9,933 bases of DNA from Octopus sinensis (taxonomy: Eukaryota). Of this stretch, positions 1 to 9,933 are shown one piece after another. Both the position numbers and the translations under genes were made by a program. The notes under the pieces are model-generated. The model saw nothing but the letters and a program-made list of their open reading frames with translations, was not told the DNA's origin and searched no databases. The stretch is from contig NW_021827760.1 in NCBI RefSeq assembly GCF_006345805.1, positions 1-9,933 of the forward strand, written 5' to 3'. Each line of letters opens with the position of its first letter. The first letter of the stretch is position 1.

Positions 1-41
1 TTAGGGGGTATAATAGTGGTTTTATCTCTAATTCATATTTT

Positions 42-72
42 ATATATATATAAAATATATATATATATGTAT

Positions 73-115
<43 letters not shown>

Positions 116-272
116 TACGTATACACACACACACACACATATATATATAATATATATATATATACATATCCATATACATATACATATACATACAAGAACA
201 TGGGTACGCACACATATTAATCTGCTGTGTGTGTGTGGTGTATATGCTTCTATTCGTGTGTATGTGTGTGTG
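42..272. repeat. Compound microsatellite: (TA)n, (CA)n, (TACA)n, then degenerate (TG)n
   Basis: Directly visible dinucleotide and tetranucleotide runs. Confidence 0.95.
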
Positions 273-591
273 TTATGTTAGTTTGGCACTACTAGCATGT
301 TTGCGAGCAAATGAGGCTAAAGTTTGTACTTTAATTCTTGCCAATAAAATATACGAGTTTGTATCTACCTAATGGCTTTTCTTGGATATTTAAATAAACA
401 AAAAATGTAAATCAAATAATGTTCTAATTGATTGCAAAGTATTTTTATGTAGCGCATAGAAATTAGAACAAAACATTGAAATACCGTTAGGCTTCCCTAT
501 CTTTCGCTATCAATGTGTACAGGCATAGTCATGTGATTAAAACGTTCACATGACTTTCTTATCAATCCCAGAAAATGTGATGTCTGTTGAA

Positions 592-907
592 GGCGCGTGG
601 CCTTGTGGTTATAGTGTTGCACGCACGATGAGGGAAGGGGTCGTGGTTTCAATCCCTGTTCCCGGTGGTGCTTTGTGTCCTTCAAAAAAACACTACATAT
701 AACGTTACTTTTTGATCACTTCGACGCCTGACATGTGATACACAGTGCACCTTTTTAGGCGTCGTCGATTTGATGGAGGAACTGAGCTAACACACTGCAG
801 GAACATTTCAAGGAGTGACACACAAATAAGAAAGAAGGAAGCAAAGGACCACTGATGCGATCACAGGAGTGTGACGAAAGAATTCTGGCCGAAATAAGAT
901 TAAGATT
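592..907 (+). mobile_element. tRNA-derived SINE (family C here), diverged
   Basis: GGCGCG start, Pol III A-box-like TGGCCTTGTGG (598-608), B-box-like GGTTTCAATCC (645-655), CORE-like TTGTGTCCTT..AAACACT (~673-694) and a short tandem tail TAAGAT-TAAGAT (895-906). The 3' boundary is inferred and no TSD was seen. Confidence 0.7.
846..890 (+). ncRNA. Candidate variant type I hammerhead ribozyme in the SINE 3' region
   Basis: Stem I GG(A)CCA 846-851 / TGGCC 886-890; core CTGATG 852-857; stem II TCACA-GGAG-TGTGA 861-874 closed by G859-C875; GAAA 876-879; short stem III region GAAT; UC cleavage site 884-885. Deviations are C at the A9 position and a bulged A860. Confidence 0.35.
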
Positions 908-1098
908 AATGTAAAAAACAAATAACGCTATAGCAAAGTAACACCAAATATATAATGCGTGTGTTTTTATTGGCTTAACTGGCAAAATGACCATTCTTAA
1001 ATACAACAATATCTGTTTCAACACACGATTTCACATCAAAAATCCTGCAAAACAAATATATAAACGTAAAAAAAACTCACCATTATTAACAAATCATC

Positions 1099-1109
1099 TG
1101 CGCATGCGC
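1099..1109. promoter_or_regulatory. NRF1/EWG-like palindromic site TGCGCATGCGC
   Basis: 11 of 12 positions match the NRF1 consensus YGCGCAYGCGCR, in an otherwise AT-rich context. Function is not shown. Confidence 0.3.
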
Positions 1110-1296
1110 CTCAGCAAAAAATTGCAGAACCATCTTTTACGTACTACGAAAGATACCAGCATGTGAATTGATTTCTTGATCCCGCTTCTTCACCATATTC
1201 ACATTATAACCGAAACCTTGTGAATTAAACCGGTTGAAAGGGAGGGAAGCCACGGGAAGGGCTTCTGCACACCCCTGGGTAGTATGCTTAACCTTT

Positions 1297-1313
1297 GATA
1301 TTTGTGTACCTTT
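1297..1313 (+). repeat. Left copy of a 17-bp target-site duplication (right copy 1545-1561)
   Basis: GATATTTGTGTACCTTT occurs identically at 1297-1313 and 1545-1561, exactly flanking the SINE. Confidence 0.95.
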
Positions 1314-1544
1314 GGCGGCGAGCTGGCAGAAACGTTAGCACGTCGGACGAAATGTGTTGTCGTATTTCGTCTGCCGTTACGTTCTGAGTTCAAATTCTGC
1401 CGAAGTCGACTTTGCTTTTCATCCTTTCGGGATTGATAAATTAAGTACCAGTTACGCACTGGGGTCGATGTAATCGACTTAATCCGTTTGTCTGTCCTTG
1501 TTTGTCCCCTCTGTGTGTAGCCCCTTGTGGGTAATAAAGAAACA
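1314..1544 (+). mobile_element. tRNA-derived SINE family A, full-length monomer
   Basis: GGCGGCGAGCTGGCAGAA head, A-box-like 1324-1334, B-box-like GTTCAAAT 1388-1395, central TTTCATCCTTTCGGG..GATAAATTAAGTACC block and AAAGAAA tail. Highly similar to 7541-7769, with a 17-bp TSD. Confidence 0.93.
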
Positions 1545-2249
1545 GATATTTGTGTACCTTTATTACAGTTCACTCCATTCTGAGTATTCGTTCCCGCTCC
1601 ACCGTTCTCAAAAATTAACATGATATTCTTATACTCTGGTATCGATACATTTATTGGTATCGTTAAGTATCAATACCTTTTCTGTAGTATGCCCTACGTC
1701 GAAAATTACTCCTTCTTTTCTTTCTCTCTGCCATCTATATCAAAAGGTCTGTAAAGTTTACAGTTGCTCTTCTTTCATTCTCTAAAATAAACTGTAAGAC
1801 CTGGGTACTTAAGCCAATAAGTTGCTAAAAATAAAATCCATTATCTTAACCCCGGCCTGATAGAATTAAATTGTAGAAATTTGCATAGAATGGGATTCTT
1901 AGGAGGCGGTTGAGTACGTCTTTTATGTTTCGTTCGTCCAGCAAGAAATAAAAATATGTAAAAGAAAAACAAAATAAACATCGACAACGAAACATTTCAG
2001 AAATAGAAACGGGAATTTCTGCGTACGGCTTGAGTAAATTTGGAATCTATTTGAGCCTTAAGACGACCAGAGATTAAACAACCGACCCAATAAACTCCGT
2101 CCATCATCTATAAACGTAGAGTGGGATTGACTTGTTGCGGCAGGTCATTGTTAATTCGAACAGAATTTTAATCGATAAAGTAACCTCTTATCTTCAAGCT
2201 ATGTCACTTATGAGATTTTCGTGGATTGAAGAAGACTGGATAGGATTTA

Positions 2250-2448
2250 GACACACGGAAAGACACACGGACAGACACACACACACACATGCACACACAC
2301 ACACGCACTTATATATCCTCACGCACACATATACATATATATATATACATACACAACACATACATAAGTGCGTGCGCATACACCATCACGCATCACACAT
2401 TTCATCTCTCCTCTCTCCATCTTACTCTCTCTTTCTACCTTTGTATGC

Positions 2449-2522
<74 letters not shown>

Positions 2523-2600
2523 TTGTCTATCTTTCTGTGTATGTGTGTATCTATCTTTCTGTTTATCTGTCTGTCTCTGTATCTGTCTCTCTCTTTCTCT
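2250..2600. repeat. Compound microsatellite including perfect (ATCT)18 at 2449-2520
   Basis: CA-rich tract, CT-rich tract, perfect ATCT array, then degenerate continuation. Confidence 0.95.
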
Positions 2601-2701
2601 ATCAATTTAATCATATGCATAAATTGGGAAAAATCCACTCATACACTCAGACGAACTTATGCAGCTGTACACCTATGAAAGCTAATACGTATAGAAATAT
2701 A

Positions 2702-4030
2702 CGAGGGTGGGCTGAAAAGTTCATAGGCTGACAATGAAGGGTTCATGCTAGAGCTGTGAAATCTTGCATACATTTACTTCAACACATCTTATTAATAACT
2801 GCATTGTTTATTTCTAGAAAAACGGACATGTGACTTTTCAATGACAACCTCAAGAGTAACTGGTAGTGACCTCTCTTATAAATGGTTTTTGGCAACGTGG
2901 TCTTACCTGCAACGTGGTCTTACCTGCAGAAAAGGTGTTTAGGCACCATGGACATTCATGTTGAGATTGTTGTTATATTAGGAGGTGACGCGTTATCAAT
3001 AGTGTTATCAACAGTGCAAAAACGGACAGCCGAATTTAGGAGGAGAAAGGAGAGTCTTGCAGATGACTTAAGGGCTGGACATCATGCAATTGCCCCTACC
3101 GAGGAGGAAAGCATCGTGTTCACCACATGGTGATGGAAGATAGGCCAGTGACTATAAATCAAATAGCCAATGCTATTGGTGTATCCTCTGAGAGAGTTGA
3201 GAATATTCTGCTCAGTAAACTTGGCATGGGGAAGGCTTCTGTTCTGTAGGTGCCATGTCTTCAAACACCTGATCAAAAGCACACCTGGCTCTTCATATCA
3301 CGGATATGTCTGACATTGCTTGAGGCGGATCTACCTGGTCTCTTTGAACATTTCGTCACCAAGTATGAGTTAGAGACAAACAAATGATGGAGTGGAAACG
3401 CTCCAGTTCACCTGCTCCAAAGAAGGCCAAAGGAGGCTTCCTTTGCTGGGAAGCGGATGGCCTAAGTTATTTGGAGTACACAAAGTATTGTGTTTATTGA
3501 CTATCTTCAAAAGGGTCACATCATCAATGGAGAGTACCATGCCAACACGCGGAGACAGTTATGAAAGGTTATGGAGATAAAAAAAGCCAGAAAATCTGTG
3601 GAAGGGGAGGGGTGTCTTCCTTCATCTGGACAATGCTCCAGCACACAAGTCTCTGGTTTCAATGATTGTTAGGCGTGACTGTGATTGGTTGATAACCTTT
3701 CCTTTTCTCCTGGTTTATGTTTGCCCACTGAAACCCTCTTTCATGGGGCCGAAGAGATGATAGTCCAGTGACGATGATAGTCCAGTGACGAGGAAGTGAA
3801 AACTGTAGTGAAGAAGTGGATGAAAAAACAGTCAATAGAATTTTACGGGACAGGCATACATGCTCTCATTCAAGGGTGGACATTGCTATTGAGAGAAACG
3901 ATGACTACGTTGAGGAGTCGGGATGTAATCTACAGAGGACCAGCTTCCTTTTGATGTATAATACATGTCCCTGTGTTAGTAATTATACCTGTCTTAAACA
4001 AGATGGCATTACTTTTTTGACCCTCCCTCG
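2702..4030 (+). mobile_element. Decayed mariner (Tc1/mariner) DNA transposon, 1329 bp
   Basis: TA dinucleotides flank both ends (2700-2701, 4031-4032). The left end CGAGGGTGGGCTGAAAAGT and the reverse-complemented right end CGAGGGAGGGTCAAAAAAGT form imperfect TIRs. Internal transposase motifs are present and the size is typical of mariners. Confidence 0.92.
2882..3920 (+). pseudogene. Mariner transposase pseudogene (frameshifts, stops, deletions)
   Basis: HTH region YLQK...LSTVQKRTAEFRRRKESLADDLRAG; *VPCLQTPDQK at 3247 (WVPHEL motif, W changed to stop); FVTKYE at 3352 (first catalytic D lost); HLDNAPAHK with D at 3629; DNLSFSPGL 3691-3717 (decayed HPPYSPDL, third D missing); C-terminal SSDEEVKTVVKKW...FYGTGIHALIQGW/IAIERNDDYVE from 3781. 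Confidence 0.9.
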
Positions 4031-4575
4031 TATATATCTCTGTGTGTATGTATATACATTCATATATGTACATTCATATACTTATATGCATGCATACATG
4101 CATACATACGGACAGACATACAGTTATTCATGCATACATATATATACAAACATACATTTGTGTATTCATACATAGATTCATTCTTAATTTCATATATACA
4201 TATATACATACGTTACATTAAATTTGCATGCATGCATACAAGGATGCATTCATTCATATATATTATATACATACATATATTCATACATTTACATACATAC
4301 ATATACACATACATACATACATACATGCATACATACATACACACAGACATACAGGGAATCCTACATATATTCATATATTCATACATATATATATACACAT
4401 ACATAGATACACATTCATAATTCATACATACATACATGCATACATACATACTTGAGTAGAGTGACTGTGAGAAAGGGAGTGAGTGAGCGAGAGTGTGTGA
4501 AAGAGTAAGAGAGAGGAATAGACAAACAGACAGAGAAAGTGAGAGAACGAGAGACAACCGAATTGACAGATAGAA
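4031..4575. repeat. Degenerate (TACA)n/(TA)n tract followed by a GA-rich tract
   Basis: Visible low-complexity sequence that explains the five overlapping H/I/Y/T-rich ORFs. Confidence 0.92.
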
Positions 4576-5224
4576 AGCTGTGGTTAATGAATTCAACTAT
4601 TTAATTAAAGTATCCTCTGTATATATATATATGTGTATTTGTGAAAAGCGGAGGTCGTACACATATCTGTTACTGTGTAAGCATATGTGCATATATGTGT
4701 GTTTATGGGACAATATGGCGACTACAATACTTATTATAATAGATTTTAATAGATTATGCTTTCAGGAAATAGAAGTAACGTAACCGAATCTAACGAAAGA
4801 AAAAAAAAATGTTTAGATTTATTCCTCTGTAAAGAATGCAACGAAAAAAAATATCATTCCGGTATATCTTCCAGAAAATTCTATTTTTATATCATGAATG
4901 AATTGTTAGGGCTTCCAATGTAAAATGATATCGTACTTCATAGAAACTGAACGAAAAAGCAGAGGCATTGACGCCATAGGGCGCCGTTGTGCATTTATAT
5001 CTTAAATTTAAAAGTGATAATGTTTAACATCACTTTACCATTGTTCCATATCATATTCAATGGAACACTATGGCAGATTTACATCCGGTTATTCTCAAAG
5101 ACTAACGTTATTACATAGAGGCAAAAACACCCACGTGCACATGCGCACAAACAAGTATACACCCTTACACATACGTTCACATCTATATGCACATACATTA
5201 CTAGTCGATGGAATAGCCACTATG

Positions 5225-5397
5225 TAGGCGTAAAACCTGCAAGAAATAGAATTCTCTCATATTAGAAAAAAAAAAAGGACGAGCACATTTAAATAATGTC
5301 AGTCCTAGCTACATGATGTTCGAATTAAAGAGTGGATTGTCACGAATGGAACGCTCTTGGTCATATGTTTCCTAGATCAGAGATTAACAACAATAGC
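5225..5397 (+). mobile_element. Probable old SINE/LINE 3'-end relic
   Basis: TGCAAGAAATAG...AAAAAGGAC..CACATT..ATAATGT.AGTCCTAG...GATCAG..., ending in an AACAACAA tail. The resemblance to a common octopus repeat is from memory only and there is no second copy in the window. Confidence 0.35.
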
Positions 5398-5411
5398 AGA
5401 CACACACGAGA

Positions 5412-5540
5412 ATATATATATATATATATATTGTTAAATTAATGGTATTATTAAATTATATCAATTTTTCACCCTCATTTTAAATTTTATTTAATAATAT
5501 ATATTATATATATATATATATATAATTATTATATATATAT

Positions 5541-5573
<33 letters not shown>

Positions 5574-5575
5574 TA
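5412..5575. repeat. (TA)n and AT-rich low-complexity tract
   Basis: Directly visible. Confidence 0.93.
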
Positions 5576-6377
5576 TAGTTATGGGTAATACATTTTTCAT
5601 TTTAAATCACCGAACAAGTGAAATGACAGTATGATCTAACGTAAATCTTATTTAAAGCAATCACCGGAGGAATCGCATCTTATACTGGGGATGGATGATA
5701 TTCATTACACAACATGTTAATTATATTACTTCACCGATATACTGCGAATGTAAAAATGTGTCGAAGCAATTCTGGTAGAAACGTTGAGTAAAATTCCTAA
5801 ATATTGACAAGTATTTCCTTTTTTTAGATGGTAGGAGCTGGATAGAACCCAACCACCATTTAACTGCCTTGGAAAAAATACCCTTAAAATTATGATATTT
5901 GTTGCAAAATATTAACAATGTTGGAACCTAATAATTTTGAAACCTAAATTAAATGAAGAAAAGTAGTGAAGAAAACGAAACCTAAGCTCAACGCTTTTCC
6001 TTTAAATTTGTTGATAATTCTCGTGACTATAGTAAATGAATTATAGCTCAAAAATATAATACGATATAAACCTCGATTGCTTCAGTTAATCTTTGAAAAA
6101 AGTTTTGTAATTTAAATGGAAGAGAAAATCAAGAAAAGTACAAGTGTTCTATTTTAATGAGATAAATATTTACGAAAATATTTGAGCAATGCAGATGGGA
6201 AATTAGGTAAAATACGTAAGGCGATGTTAATAAATGAAAGTAGAAAGAAAATATATTTTGTTATCTGTTATAAGTTATTTATCAATAGTATAACATTTCG
6301 GGAAATGATGCCCCTTTTCAAATAGAGGAAAAACAATGTTTTCTGATAAATATGTTGCTACCAGTAGGTCAATCAAG

Positions 6378-6980
6378 TGAGTGTGTGCGTGGGCATATGT
6401 GTGTGTGTGTGTGCGTATATGTATTGTGTGTGTATTATGTTCTCTGTGTGTGTGTGTGCATGTGTGTATGTCTATAAAAGAATATAATATTTGATATCAA
6501 AATCCTTCGATGTGCATGGTTACTGACAATCTACTTTATTGTTATCTCAGACAATCCTTTGTTCAATATTTACGAAGAGGTCAATGGCATTTCATACAAA
6601 TATGTATATATATATGTATGTATATATATATATATGTATATATATATCTATGCTATCTATATCTATCTATATATATATATAATATATATTATATATTATA
6701 TATATACTATACAACACTATATATATAATATATATATACATATATATACACATATATATACATATATATATAATGTTACGTATATATGAATGTATATTTT
6801 ATATATTCGTACATACATATTTGTATCTATCTATATATCTATATATATATATATAAATATATATATAATATGTGTGTGTGTGTGCGCGCGCTCGTATGTG
6901 TAGAATTAATCAAAGTTTTCGAATTAATCTGTTGTTACCTGTAAGTCATCAAGTATGAGTATGTTGCGCGTATGTGTATA

Positions 6981-7028
<48 letters not shown>

Positions 7029-7060
7029 TATATATATATTATATATGTATATATATATAC
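6378..7060. repeat. Cluster of (TG)n (6378-6472) and (TA)n tracts (~6600-6890, ~6975-7060)
   Basis: Directly visible, with short unique spacers between tracts. Confidence 0.92.
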
Positions 7061-7279
7061 AAAGGAGAAAGAGAAAGTGTCAGTTAGTGAGGGAGAAAGA
7101 AAGAGACAGAGAGATGAATATATAGAAAGATTAGAAATGTCGGAAACAGATAAAGGCCTACTTATCAGCTTAAAATTCTCCGATCTCAACGAATAAGTGA
7201 ATTTAAGTTCACTTATTCGTTGCGAATATAACTGTAACAAGCATGGATGCTTACTGAATGCTTACTTTTACCACCGAGA

Positions 7280-7540
7280 GAAGATGAATAGATGTATAGA
7301 CAAAGATATTATGTAAGAAGAGACAGACAGATAGATAAAATAGACAGTAAGACTGACAGTAAGATATATAGACAGATAGAGACACAGATCTAAAGATTGA
7401 AAGATACGCATTAGCAAAAGAAAAACAGAGAGGCAGGCAGATAGAAAGATTTGTAGAGAGAGATAAGAGATAGAAAAAGAGGTAGATTCATGAACAGATA
7501 GATAGATAGACAGACAGACAGATAGGCAGGTAGGTAGATA
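7280..7540. repeat. Degenerate (GATA)n/(GACA)n purine-rich tract, continuing at 7954-8078 after the SINE dimer
   Basis: GATA/GACA units lie on both sides of the SINE insertion. Confidence 0.85.
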
Positions 7541-7769
7541 GGCGGCGAGCTGGCAGAAAAGTTAGCACGACGGACGAAATGCTTAGCGGTATTTCGTCTG
7601 TGTTACGTTCTGAGTTCAAATTCCCGCGAGGTCGACTTTGCCTTTCACATCTTTCGGGTCGATAATTAAGTACCAGTTACGCACTGGGGTCGATGTAATC
7701 GACTTAATACCTATGTCTGTCCTTGTTTGTCCCCTCTGTGTTTAGCCCCTTGTGGCTAATAAAGAAATA
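7541..7769 (+). mobile_element. tRNA-derived SINE family A, full-length first unit of a dimer
   Basis: Colinear with 1314-1544 from GGCGGCGAGCTGGCAGAA to AAAGAAATA. Confidence 0.93.
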
Positions 7770-7953
7770 GGTATTTCGTCTGCCGTTACGTTCTGAGTTC
7801 AAATTCCGCCGAGGTCGACTTTATCTTTCATCTTTTCGGGGTCGATAAATTAAGTAGCAGTCACGCACTGGTGTCGATGTAATCGACTTAATCCCCTTGT
7901 CTGTCCTTGTTTGTCCTCTCTGTATTTAGCCCCTTGTGGGCAGTAAAGAAATA
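7770..7953 (+). mobile_element. SINE family A, headless second unit (no A box) fused head-to-tail
   Basis: Restarts at the internal GGTATTTCGTCTG and runs to AAAGAAATA. TAGGTAGATA at 7531-7540 and 7952-7961 may be a TSD around the whole dimer. Confidence 0.92.
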
Positions 7954-8079
7954 GGTAGATAAACAGACAAACAGTTAGATAGATAGAAAAGTAAATAGAT
8001 AGATAGATAGAAATATAGACATGTAGAAAGATAGATAGATGCAAATATAGTGATGTAGAGAGAAAGATGGATATAGAAA

Positions 8080-8106
8080 GCGGCGAATTGGAAGTCATTA
8101 GAGCGT
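8080..8106 (+). mobile_element. Decayed family A-like SINE head relic
   Basis: GCGGCGAATTGGAAG-TCATTAG resembles GCGGCGAGCTGGCAGAAACGTTAG of the intact copies. Confidence 0.45.
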
Positions 8107-8574
8107 GTCTAGAATTCCACAGTGTTTGTTTTCTGTTCACCGAAGTTATCTTTACGTTCAAAACTTCGACATCAATCAGAAAAAAGAAGGAACCAGCCCA
8201 GGGCAGCTCCGCCTCCAAGAAGGGCTTGGTGGTGGGGCGAGATGCCTTGTGGTATCCCTTCTCGATCGTTGCGTTCTGAAAGCAACAACAGCAGCGATAA
8301 AGAGTGCCAGGCCGTATCGTTCCATTGTCTATGGACTCTTTCTTGTGAAAACCTCATTGGTGTGGAGAGAAAAGACATTCATGTTTAGGTAACAGCTCGT
8401 ATTAAAAACGACCTTACTTGAGTTTGTGCATGTAAGTGTTGACGTTTTTGGTCAACGTTGACCGACGGGAACGAACTAATAATATTTGTTCACGTCTGGG
8501 CTATGAAAGGTCTTTGCATATTTTTGTTGGTCTTGGATGTTTGACATCCTTTTGAAGGATTTCGGTCTTCAACT

Positions 8575-8576
<2 letters not shown>

Positions 8577-8651
<75 letters not shown>

Positions 8652-8745
8652 ATATATATTGAGTGTAATGAATATCTTGTTATGGATATTCGTTAACCGA
8701 TACCTGGGTAGCAAATTCACATCAGGTTCAACTCCATTCTTTCAT

Positions 8746-8790
<45 letters not shown>

Positions 8791-8935
8791 CACACACATA
8801 TATATATATATATATATATTATTATATATATATATATATATAATATATTATAAATGTGTGTGTGTACACATATATATGCACACTCATATGTATGCATGTA
8901 CGTACGTACGTACCTACCTACATACCTATACATGC
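8577..8935. repeat. (TA)n arrays (8577-8658, 8744-~8850) and mixed microsatellite
   Basis: Directly visible, interrupted by a unique island at 8661-8743. Confidence 0.93.
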
Positions 8936-8936
8936 A

Positions 8937-9082
8937 TTTTTTTCTCTCCTTGTTTGTCTTCTTGTTTTTTTCTGTGTATCTTTCTGTAGAAGAGCGTAGG
9001 CTCGAAACGTAAAAGACTTTTTCTATTCCTGAGCGCTATACTAATACATTTGTTTGTACTCCATCTATTTTCGTAAACTTCC
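8937..9082 (+). mobile_element. Probable Penelope-like element terminal (pLTR) fragment
   Basis: T-rich island between microsatellites, carrying a minimal hammerhead-like motif of the kind known from Penelope-like pLTRs. No RT or GIY-YIG coding sequence was seen and the boundaries are approximate. Confidence 0.55.
8979..9016 (+). ncRNA. Minimal type I hammerhead-ribozyme-like motif (variant core)
   Basis: Stem I TCTTT 8979-8983 / AAAGA 9012-9016; core CTGTAGA(A) 8984-8991; stem II GAGC-GTAG-GCTC 8992-9003; GAAA 9004-9007; palindromic ACGT stem III; GUA site ending at 9011. Confidence 0.6.
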
Positions 9083-9083
9083 G

Positions 9084-9170
9084 TACCTACCTACCTACCT
9101 ACCTACCTACCTACCTGTTTATCTATTTATTTATCTATCTATCTTTATATACATATATGTTTATGTGTAT
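9084..9170. repeat. (CTAC)n then degenerate (TATC)n/(TA)n
   Basis: Directly visible. Confidence 0.9.
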
Positions 9171-9174
9171 ATAA

Positions 9175-9274
9175 TTCTGTTTGCGTTTGTCATCAGTCAC
9201 CGTGGATTTGTTTACCTCCGCAAAAGATATGCTATAGAATACGAACCAGACTTCAAAACACACACACACACACA

Positions 9275-9305
<31 letters not shown>

Positions 9306-9425
9306 CACAACAGAAAATAACAAAAACCAAACCATAAGCACTGGATTTGCTTTCTTCAACCAAAATCTTCAAGACGATGCTCCAGCATGACCGCAATCCG
9401 ATAACTAAAAGAAGCAAAATATAGA
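9175..9425 (+). mobile_element. Old, decayed 3' half of a family B SINE, interrupted by (CA)n at 9259-9309
   Basis: Colinear matches to the young copy: GTTTACCTCC 9210 vs GTTTACGTCC 9705; GCAAAAGA 9220 vs 9733; TGCTCCAGCATG 9378 vs 9813. Confidence 0.7.
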
Positions 9426-9450
9426 ACATGAACGACATACTATGTATAAA

Positions 9451-9871
9451 TGCACAGGAGTGGCTGTGTGGTAAGTAGCTTGCTTACCAACCACATGGTT
9501 CCGGGTTCAGTCCCACTGCATGGCATCTTGGGCAAGTGTCTTCTGCTATAGCCCCGGGCCGACCAATGCCTTGTGAGTGGATTTGGTAGACGGAAACAGA
9601 AAGAAGCCTGTCGTATATATGTATATATATATAAGTGTGTGTGTGTATATGTTTGTGTGTCTGTGTTTGTCCCCCTAGCATTGCTTGACAACCGATGCTG
9701 GTGTGTTTACGTCCCCGTCACTTAGCGGTTCGGCAAAAGAGACCGATATAATAAATACTGGGCTTACAAAAAAAGAATAAGTCCCGGGGTCGATTTGCTC
9801 GACTAAAGGCGGTGCTCCAGCATGGCGGCAGTCAAATGATTGAAACGAGTAAAAGAGTAAAGAGTAAAGAG
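9451..9871 (+). mobile_element. tRNA-derived SINE family B, full length, with internal microsatellite
   Basis: A box TGGCTGTGTGG 9461-9471, B box GGTTCAGTCCC 9504-9514, CORE-like CTTGGGCAAGTGTCTT from 9527, internal (TA)/(TG) tract ~9615-9668 and tandem tail (GAGTAAA)n 9847-9871. Confidence 0.9.
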
Positions 9872-9900
9872 ATGTACGCATGGAGCCCAGATAATCGTGT

Positions 9901-9927
9901 CATTAGCATGTTGGACGAACTGCTTAC
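9901..9927 (+). mobile_element. Decayed family A-like SINE head fragment at the window edge
   Basis: TTAGCATGTTGGACGAACTGCTTA vs TTAGCACGACGGACGAAATGCTTA (7562-7585). Confidence 0.5.
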
Positions 9928-9933
9928 CTTACA

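Follow-up and report, generated by a model that had tools for sequence, protein, structure and literature searches.

A Penelope-type mini-hammerhead block with U at core position 6 in a retrotransposon family of Octopus sinensis

A hammerhead-like motif is located at positions 8979-9016 of a 9,933-nt stretch of the Octopus sinensis genome (contig NW_021827760.1 of assembly GCF_006345805.1, positions 1 to 9,933 of the forward strand; hereafter the window). We consider it highly probable that this motif represents the mini-hammerhead block of a Penelope-like element (PLE), and that the window contains the 3' end of such an element as a 5'-truncated, dead copy inserted in a microsatellite. In the parent elements the block is conserved, likely by selection, and it carries U at core position 6 (U6), where the hammerhead has a strictly conserved A. 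With this core it would cleave weakly at best, and then only as a dimer or with the help of a protein.

Read directly, the window at 8979-9016 is TCTTT CTGTAGAA GAGC GTAG GCTC GAAA CG TA AAAGA, exactly the letters that an earlier, sequence-only reading of this DNA had given for a hammerhead. The parts of the motif are as follows.

8979..9016, + strand: hammerhead-like motif, in the limits of the sequence-only reading; the block kept between subfamilies is 8980-9016
8980..8983, + strand: helix I, 5' arm, CUUU; a fifth pair, from 8979, exists in subfamily A1 only
8984..8990, + strand: core box 1, C3 U4 G5 U6 A7 (N7) G8 A9, with U6 at 8987 and N7 at 8988
8991, + strand: unpaired extra A ahead of helix II, present in 96/99 copies
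8992..9003, + strand: helix II, GAGC/GCUC (4 bp, arms 8992-8995 / 9000-9003), with loop GUAG
9004..9011, + strand: core box 2, G12 A13 A14 A15.1, then C G, U16.1 and H17 (A)
between 9011 and 9012, + strand: predicted cleavage site, after GUA
9012..9016, + strand: helix I, 3' arm, AAAGA

Helix I has 5 bp in the window (8979-8983 paired with 9012-9016), as had been claimed. Position 8979, however, is C in about 40-53% of the contig depth of other sequencing runs (see below) and in subfamily C; the outermost pair, 8979-9016, is thus lost among related subfamilies, and the conserved stem I is therefore 4 bp long (8980-8983/9012-9015). Helix II is closed by the pair G10.1-C11.1 (G8992-C9003), whose two letters are present in 95 and 98 of the 99 copies that span the motif in the loci we fetched, and every position of 8992-9003 keeps the window letter in at least 94 of these copies. 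In the second core box GAAA occupies 9004-9007, CG 9008-9009, U16.1 9010 and A17 9011, so that the four letters ACGU at 9007-9010 are self-complementary. This palindrome would build helix III between two blocks in a dimer.

A descriptor that left position 6 free, allowed one extra base and asked for 4 or more bp in helix I, 4-8 bp in helix II, GAAA, a palindrome as helix III and U-H gave a single match across both strands of the window, at the motif, and 0 matches in 300 dinucleotide-preserving shuffles. The same descriptor with the canonical CTGANGA box found no match in the window. We were also not able to find any hit of the Rfam hammerhead models in the window, either at the gathering score or at E up to 10. 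This negative carries no weight for the motif, because a canonical-core mini-hammerhead family of the same genome, here denoted family X, escapes the same models too. The Rfam hammerhead models do not cover this minimal class.

Whether U6 is the consensus of the family or a private mutation of this copy was a question raised by the sequence-only reading, and the answer is the family consensus. All of the 30 aligned loci have T at position 6, with A (24 loci) or C (6 loci) at N7. Exact matches to CTGNNGAAGAGCGTAGGCTCGAAACGTA number 4381+4511 across the genome (8,892), compared with 0 for the reversed control; among the first 100 matches listed, position 6 is T in 98 and C in 2, and position 7 is A in 30, C in 27, T in 37 and G in 6. 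The 99 copies spanning the motif give the same picture: T98 and G1 at 8987, A31, C33, G4 and T31 at 8988, and A80, T18, C1 and G0 at H17 (9011), with all remaining positions keeping the window letter in at least 88/99. We then turned to contigs of four public runs, coded as organisms A-D, which at a likeness of at least 85% comprise 1038, 181, 9404 and 6033 contigs, respectively. None of these contig sets has a variant of at least 5% at 8987, and such variants occur at 8979, 8988, 8996, 9008, 9009, 9011 and other positions. U6 is fixed in every one of the four subfamilies examined. It is a fixed trait of one lineage, since the genome also holds the canonical mini-hammerheads of family X.

The block fits a described class in nearly all other respects. 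The emergent features of PLE mini-hammerheads are a short helix I, a nucleotide lying between 9 and 10.1, a G10.1-C11.1 pair and a palindrome for helix III (Cervera and De la Pena 2014, PMC4209133), and the supplementary consensus of that study reads U-rich, NNN, CUGANGAH, G...C, GAAA N palindrome N U H. The octopus block likewise has a U-rich 5' flank, an open helix I of 4-5 bp, an unpaired base between 9 and 10.1, G10.1-C11.1, GAAA, the palindromic ACGU in place of helix III and the U-H triplet. It also sits, like the PLE minimal type I hammerheads, in both pseudo-long terminal repeats (pseudo-LTRs) of an element with reverse transcriptase (RT) and GIY-YIG endonuclease, and it is present in thousands of mostly solitary, truncated copies. 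It is unlike them in its family-wide U6 in place of the strictly conserved A, so that the CUGANGA box of the class is absent. Of the two oddities that had been pointed out in the core, U6 therefore stands, as the sole departure from the class; the extra A before stem II, which had been called unusual, is the standard unpaired H contained in the consensus CUGANGAH (PMC4209133).

Published searches fixed CUGANGA in their descriptors (PMC4209133; PMC8557442, cited here from the part of its text available to us, as are PMC3088659, PMC11167929 and a 2026 preprint below), and a U6 family would therefore be missed by them. Core changes on record include U3-A8 (PMC4209133) and, in the available part of PMC3088659, A6C, A6a, U13a and U15.1-A16.1. 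The closest of these is the A6C hammerhead of phage Bcep176 (Perreault et al. 2011, PMC3088659), which is likewise a natural substitution at position 6. It differs in being a single locus of a bacterial virus, with C and with a slow rate that was measured; the octopus variant is a U, fixed across thousands of retroelement copies in a eukaryote and known from sequence alone. We found no mention of a natural U6 hammerhead in a literature search that did not extend to Lunse et al. 2016 and one supplement of PMC4209133, which is not proof of its absence in print. The kind of motif is thus already known, as a PLE mini-hammerhead, and the core variant U6 is new.

The sequence-only reading had proposed looking for linkage to RT plus GIY-YIG open reading frames (ORFs), and this linkage was found in the long copies and their homologues. 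A query taken from upstream of a longer copy returned 887 candidates, and the 40 that were scored all matched most or the whole of it; some copies extend more than 1.8 kb upstream. The upstream DNA of long copies encodes ...FPCSRPRCRTCPY...NIIYCISCSLCHSLYIGQTGRRLADRFAEH..., and the Pfam model RVT_1 scores 36.7 bits in ORF fragments of long copies and 30.8 bits in the 745-aa ORF of locus L068 (cut-off 29.6). A GIY-YIG-like stretch of the octopus copies themselves reaches 16.8 bits, which is below the Pfam cut-off. Database homologues of 800-1000 aa carry PF00078, and in some cases PF01541 as well. One of them, P0002, has a GIY-YIG domain at 25 bits (cut-off 22.6). Over 641 aa it shares 49% identity with the L068 ORF, and L068 matches its endonuclease end past a frameshift. 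Frameshifts or stops are present in all element copies examined. A linker of the CX4CxxC type, CSRPRCRTC, lies upstream of the GIY motif. The parent element is about 4.4-4.6 kb long, with the order RT, CX4CxxC linker, GIY-YIG endonuclease. Endonuclease-bearing (EN+) Penelope-like elements are built in this way, with RT ahead of a C-terminal GIY-YIG, and the motif is accordingly of the Penelope type, as had been thought: a minimal type I hammerhead-like motif in the pseudo-LTR position of an element with RT and GIY-YIG.

Among EN+ PLEs the element resembles the Neptune/Nematis type (Arkhipova 2006, as described in the available part of PMC8557442), by features and not by a tree. The two share a GIY-YIG placed C-terminally of RT, a CX2-5CxxC linker (here CSRPRCRTC), partial-tandem pseudo-LTRs, insertion in (TA)n or other microsatellites and heavy 5' truncation. 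The octopus element also has a long proline/serine/leucine-rich stretch between the ORF and the 3' end. In L051-L055 and L058-L071 this stretch follows the endonuclease motif as 150-250 codons of proline/serine/leucine-rich low complexity in CT-rich DNA. In the same loci the low-complexity frames are followed by a family-specific AC-rich or TAATAC-repeat stretch, and then by the conserved last 200 nt.

The position of the block in the parent element was examined in 20 long loci obtained with an RT-region query. By a strict scan, 8/20 of these carry two motifs on the same strand, 4.36-4.56 kb apart, four carry one (L060, L066, L072 and L075) and eight carry none; in L061, which is among the latter, the sole match of the strict scan is a family X motif. 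BLAST finds pseudo-LTR matches in most of the loci missed by the strict scan. The two motifs sit in direct repeats of 281-1976 bp that are 88-98% identical and all end at the 3' end of the element. The upstream repeat ends at a common junction, which the 5' end of the full copy directly adjoins. The block is thus found in both pseudo-LTRs of partial tandems, about 110-140 nt before the element's 3' end, and this partial-tandem pseudo-LTR arrangement is the one in which PLE hammerheads have been described (PMC4209133).

In the window, the copy and its surroundings are as follows.

8937..9082, + strand: 5'-truncated 3' end (pseudo-LTR part) of a PLE of subfamily A1, 146 bp
8891..8936, no strand: upstream part of the target microsatellite, of GTAC/TACC type, read from the letters
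9083..9116, no strand: downstream part, the same kind of microsatellite, (TACC)8; row 9084-9116 of Tandem Repeats Finder (TRF)

A search of the octopus's own 2.72-Gb genome gave 729 first-look candidates, of which 40 were scored and are 89-100% identical to the query. The 30 aligned loci have ragged 5' ends and a common 3' end (...TTTTCGTAAAC-TTTCCC-TTTA), which is followed by (TA)n or another microsatellite. Element copies are bordered by (TA)n, (TATG)n or (TACC)n and are mostly 5'-truncated, and several have the same repeat on both flanks: (TA)n in L008, L009 and L026, and (TATG)n in L019. An interspersed repeat family associated with microsatellites, as the sequence-only reading had surmised, is what the large copy number and these flanks show. 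The island of about 145 bp that it saw between microsatellites is also borne out, with (AT)n at 8744-8852 and (TACC)n at 9084-9116 by TRF and the GTAC/TACC repeat reaching 8936; this island is an element insertion inside a microsatellite. By our own reading of the alignments, the window copy has lost roughly 17-20 internal nt near 9060, compared with most of the other copies. The name "non-autonomous" that had been given to the repeat does not hold. Subfamily A1, to which the window copy belongs, includes by BLAST the long members L075, L063 and L062, with an RT region, and the window copy is therefore a truncated copy of an autonomous element, not a member of a separate non-autonomous family. 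It is a solitary, truncated and most likely inert insertion, which would have no function of its own.

Conservation of the block was examined by comparing subfamilies. Majority rows were derived from 29 copies of subfamily A1, to which the window copy belongs, 15 copies each of A2 and B, and 18 copies of C. The RT region of subfamily B is about 75% identical in DNA to that of A; subfamily C is older, with 2,527 first-look candidates and copies that are 81-85% alike. Between the four majority rows the 37-nt block is identical at 35-37/37 positions (95-100%), compared with 66-91% for the 3' flank and 32-78% for the 5' flank. In comparisons with subfamily C, where the 3' flank is 66-73% identical, the block is significantly better conserved than that flank (Fisher p = 6e-6 for A2-C, 2.6e-4 for B-C and 6e-4 for A1-C). 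Differences inside the block fall only at N7 (A, C or U) and at H17 (A; U in subfamily B), which are the two core positions that a hammerhead leaves free. The four majority rows agree fully in helix II and in the 4 bp of helix I. In addition, many contigs of the other runs match just from 8980/8981 to 9020-9027 and then diverge; the edges of the conserved island are therefore the arms of helix I.

What the block can still do as RNA is suggested by comparison with related ribozymes. Ribozymes altered at position 6 showed low activity in earlier mutagenesis, and the kobs of a natural A6C hammerhead is below 0.1 per min (both from the available part of PMC3088659). PLE mini-hammerheads are slow in vitro even with canonical cores, and act as dimers (PMC4209133). 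The available part of PMC11167929 reports that the hammerhead of a lizard PLE cleaves only when the element's protein is present, and that cleavage is unnecessary for insertion in vitro; PLEs without canonical hammerheads proliferate well, and whole clades do without them (PMC8557442, available part). By analogy, U6 likely weakens or abolishes self-cleavage, and catalysis by the block is likely much reduced. We propose that the block is a hammerhead descendant that would be kept by selection in active master copies. If it cleaves at all, the cut should fall after GUA, or after GUU in subfamily B, and two blocks would pair through their ACGU palindromes to make helix III. U6 would strongly lower the rate of this reaction, and the block may instead persist for a non-catalytic role of the RNA.

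Several observations weigh against this proposal. A junction could be recognised in 13 full-length copies, and in none of them does the upstream pseudo-LTR start at the predicted cut; the genome therefore gives no sign of the copying of cleaved RNA. In the comparison of A2 with B, the block shows no significant excess of conservation over the 3' flank (Fisher p = 0.39), because the whole last 200 nt are conserved in that pair. The stems are invariant, so that no covariation backs the fold, which speaks neither for nor against it. C7-G8 is a CpG, where C>T is expected, and part of the spread at N7 can thus be mutational. The subfamily samples are small (15-29 copies) and were partly picked by their similarity to the region. 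The runs of organisms A-D are contigs under coded labels, which give no distance between these organisms. Finally, the minimum-energy fold that RNAfold gives for the 38-mer with U6 (-8.0 kcal/mol) adds a three-pair helix of U4-G5-U6 with A15.1-C-G. In this model the UGU/ACG helix extends the hairpin and would compete with the active open core; A6 could not form it.

Other explanations were weighed as well. The U6 block might be a fully working ribozyme, in which U6 is tolerated or compensated (by A7, the extra A, or a dimer or protein context) and which cuts unit-length RNA from tandem transcripts. This would agree with a block that stays intact through at least four subfamilies, in copies 2-19% diverged and with drifting flanks, with variation confined to N7 and H17 as a working hammerhead permits, and with the lizard PLE hammerhead that needs its protein to cleave (PMC11167929, available part). 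We nevertheless regard it as possible rather than probable, given the low activity of position-6 variants, A6C among them (PMC3088659, available part), the 0/13 upstream pseudo-LTRs that begin at the predicted cut, and a core in which no compensatory change can be named. The broader claim that the U6 hammerhead is a working, selected ribozyme core, or alternatively a PLE block kept for a job that needs no cleavage, is likewise one that we would advance only tentatively. Alternatively, A6U may have killed the ribozyme, and the sequence may persist by descent or as DNA, for example as a promoter element of the pseudo-LTR, without selection on the RNA fold. Elements of this kind lacking canonical hammerheads do thrive, insertion in vitro is independent of cleavage (PMC8557442 and PMC11167929, available parts), the A2-B block is no better kept than its 3' flank, and no covariation is available. 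Such a dead relic is unlikely, however, in view of the comparison with subfamily C (block 35-37/37, 3' flank 66-73%), of island edges that coincide with the helix I arms, and of changes that occur only at the two free core positions.

A further alternative is a non-autonomous ribozyme repeat, as the sequence-only reading had inferred; it would be retrozyme-like or SINE-like (SINE, short interspersed element) and separate from the autonomous PLEs. All 29 of the window copy's closest relatives are indeed short, at most about 330 bp, and the 2026 preprint derives animal retrozymes from PLE pseudo-LTRs (10.64898/2026.07.22.740005, available part). But the 5' ends are ragged, as in 5' truncation, the long A1 copies L075, L063 and L062 have an RT region and two pseudo-LTRs, and both close same-strand pairs inspected, at distances of 662 and 746 nt, turned out to be duplications with host DNA in them, which together make this reading quite improbable. 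A chance hammerhead look-alike in AT-rich repeat DNA would be in keeping with a consensus broken at one strictly conserved position and with the lack of an Rfam match. Its probability is negligible, considering the 0 matches in 300 shuffles, the 8,892 exact copies compared with 0 for the control, and the location of the motif at the known place of PLE hammerheads. A PLE mini-hammerhead block conserved in its parents, likely by selection, with a core of weak cleavage at best, therefore remains the reading that we favour.

Family X is the second mini-hammerhead repeat family of the genome, with the form CCAC-CUGANGA-helix II-GAAA-CAAUUG-UA-GUGG. It shares the general architecture of the U6 family: helix I is short, U-A is preceded by a palindrome (ACAAUUGU) and the flanks are AT-rich. 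It differs by its canonical CUGANGA core. A pattern with positions 6 and 7 free has 1,847 matches in the genome (control, 0), and the 100/100 matches listed have A6, with A, U or C at N7. The 10.1-11.1 pair of this family covaries, being U-A or A-U. Family X copies often form inverted pairs, 60-4300 nt apart, with AT-rich flanks that end in (TA)n, and in the three inverted pairs inspected the enclosed DNA had no RT homology to P0002. Two examples are as follows.

L061 (G000:C3:168494806-168503658), about 7090 in element orientation (about base 1764 of the locus): family X motif
L059, about 2189: family X motif

Head-to-tail arrays of the retrozyme type were also considered for the U6 family and rejected: the window copy is solitary, and both of the close same-strand pairs inspected (two cases only) are duplications of host DNA. 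The loci L106 (G000:C1:14475800-14477800) and L107 (G000:C1:37711100-37713100) contain tandem duplications of 662 and 746 bp, respectively, each of which spans a solitary truncated PLE copy together with flanking host DNA and a (TA)n tract. These two loci suggest that local duplication occurs at insertions with microsatellite flanks. Elsewhere in the window, at 1314-1548 and 7541-7957, there are three copies of another repeat of about 185-235 nt (GGCGGCGAGCTGGCAGAAA.GTTAGCACG...GGTATTTCGTCTGC...GAGTTCAAATTCC...), two of them head to tail at 7588-7957. This repeat looks SINE-like, with what resembles a tRNA box, but neither ARAGORN nor Rfam reports a tRNA in it.

These results describe a successful PLE lineage that swapped a strictly conserved core base and yet kept the rest of the motif while its flanks diverged. 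PLE hammerheads are slow in vitro (PMC4209133), dispensable for insertion in one element tested and absent from whole clades (PMC11167929 and PMC8557442, available parts). PLE hammerhead counts in invertebrate genomes are likely too low, as descriptors with a fixed CUGANGA miss U6 families. Whether the U6 block still cleaves or serves in some other way, the family, with about 9,000 copies or more, amounts to a natural mutant in which conservation of the motif is uncoupled from canonical catalysis.
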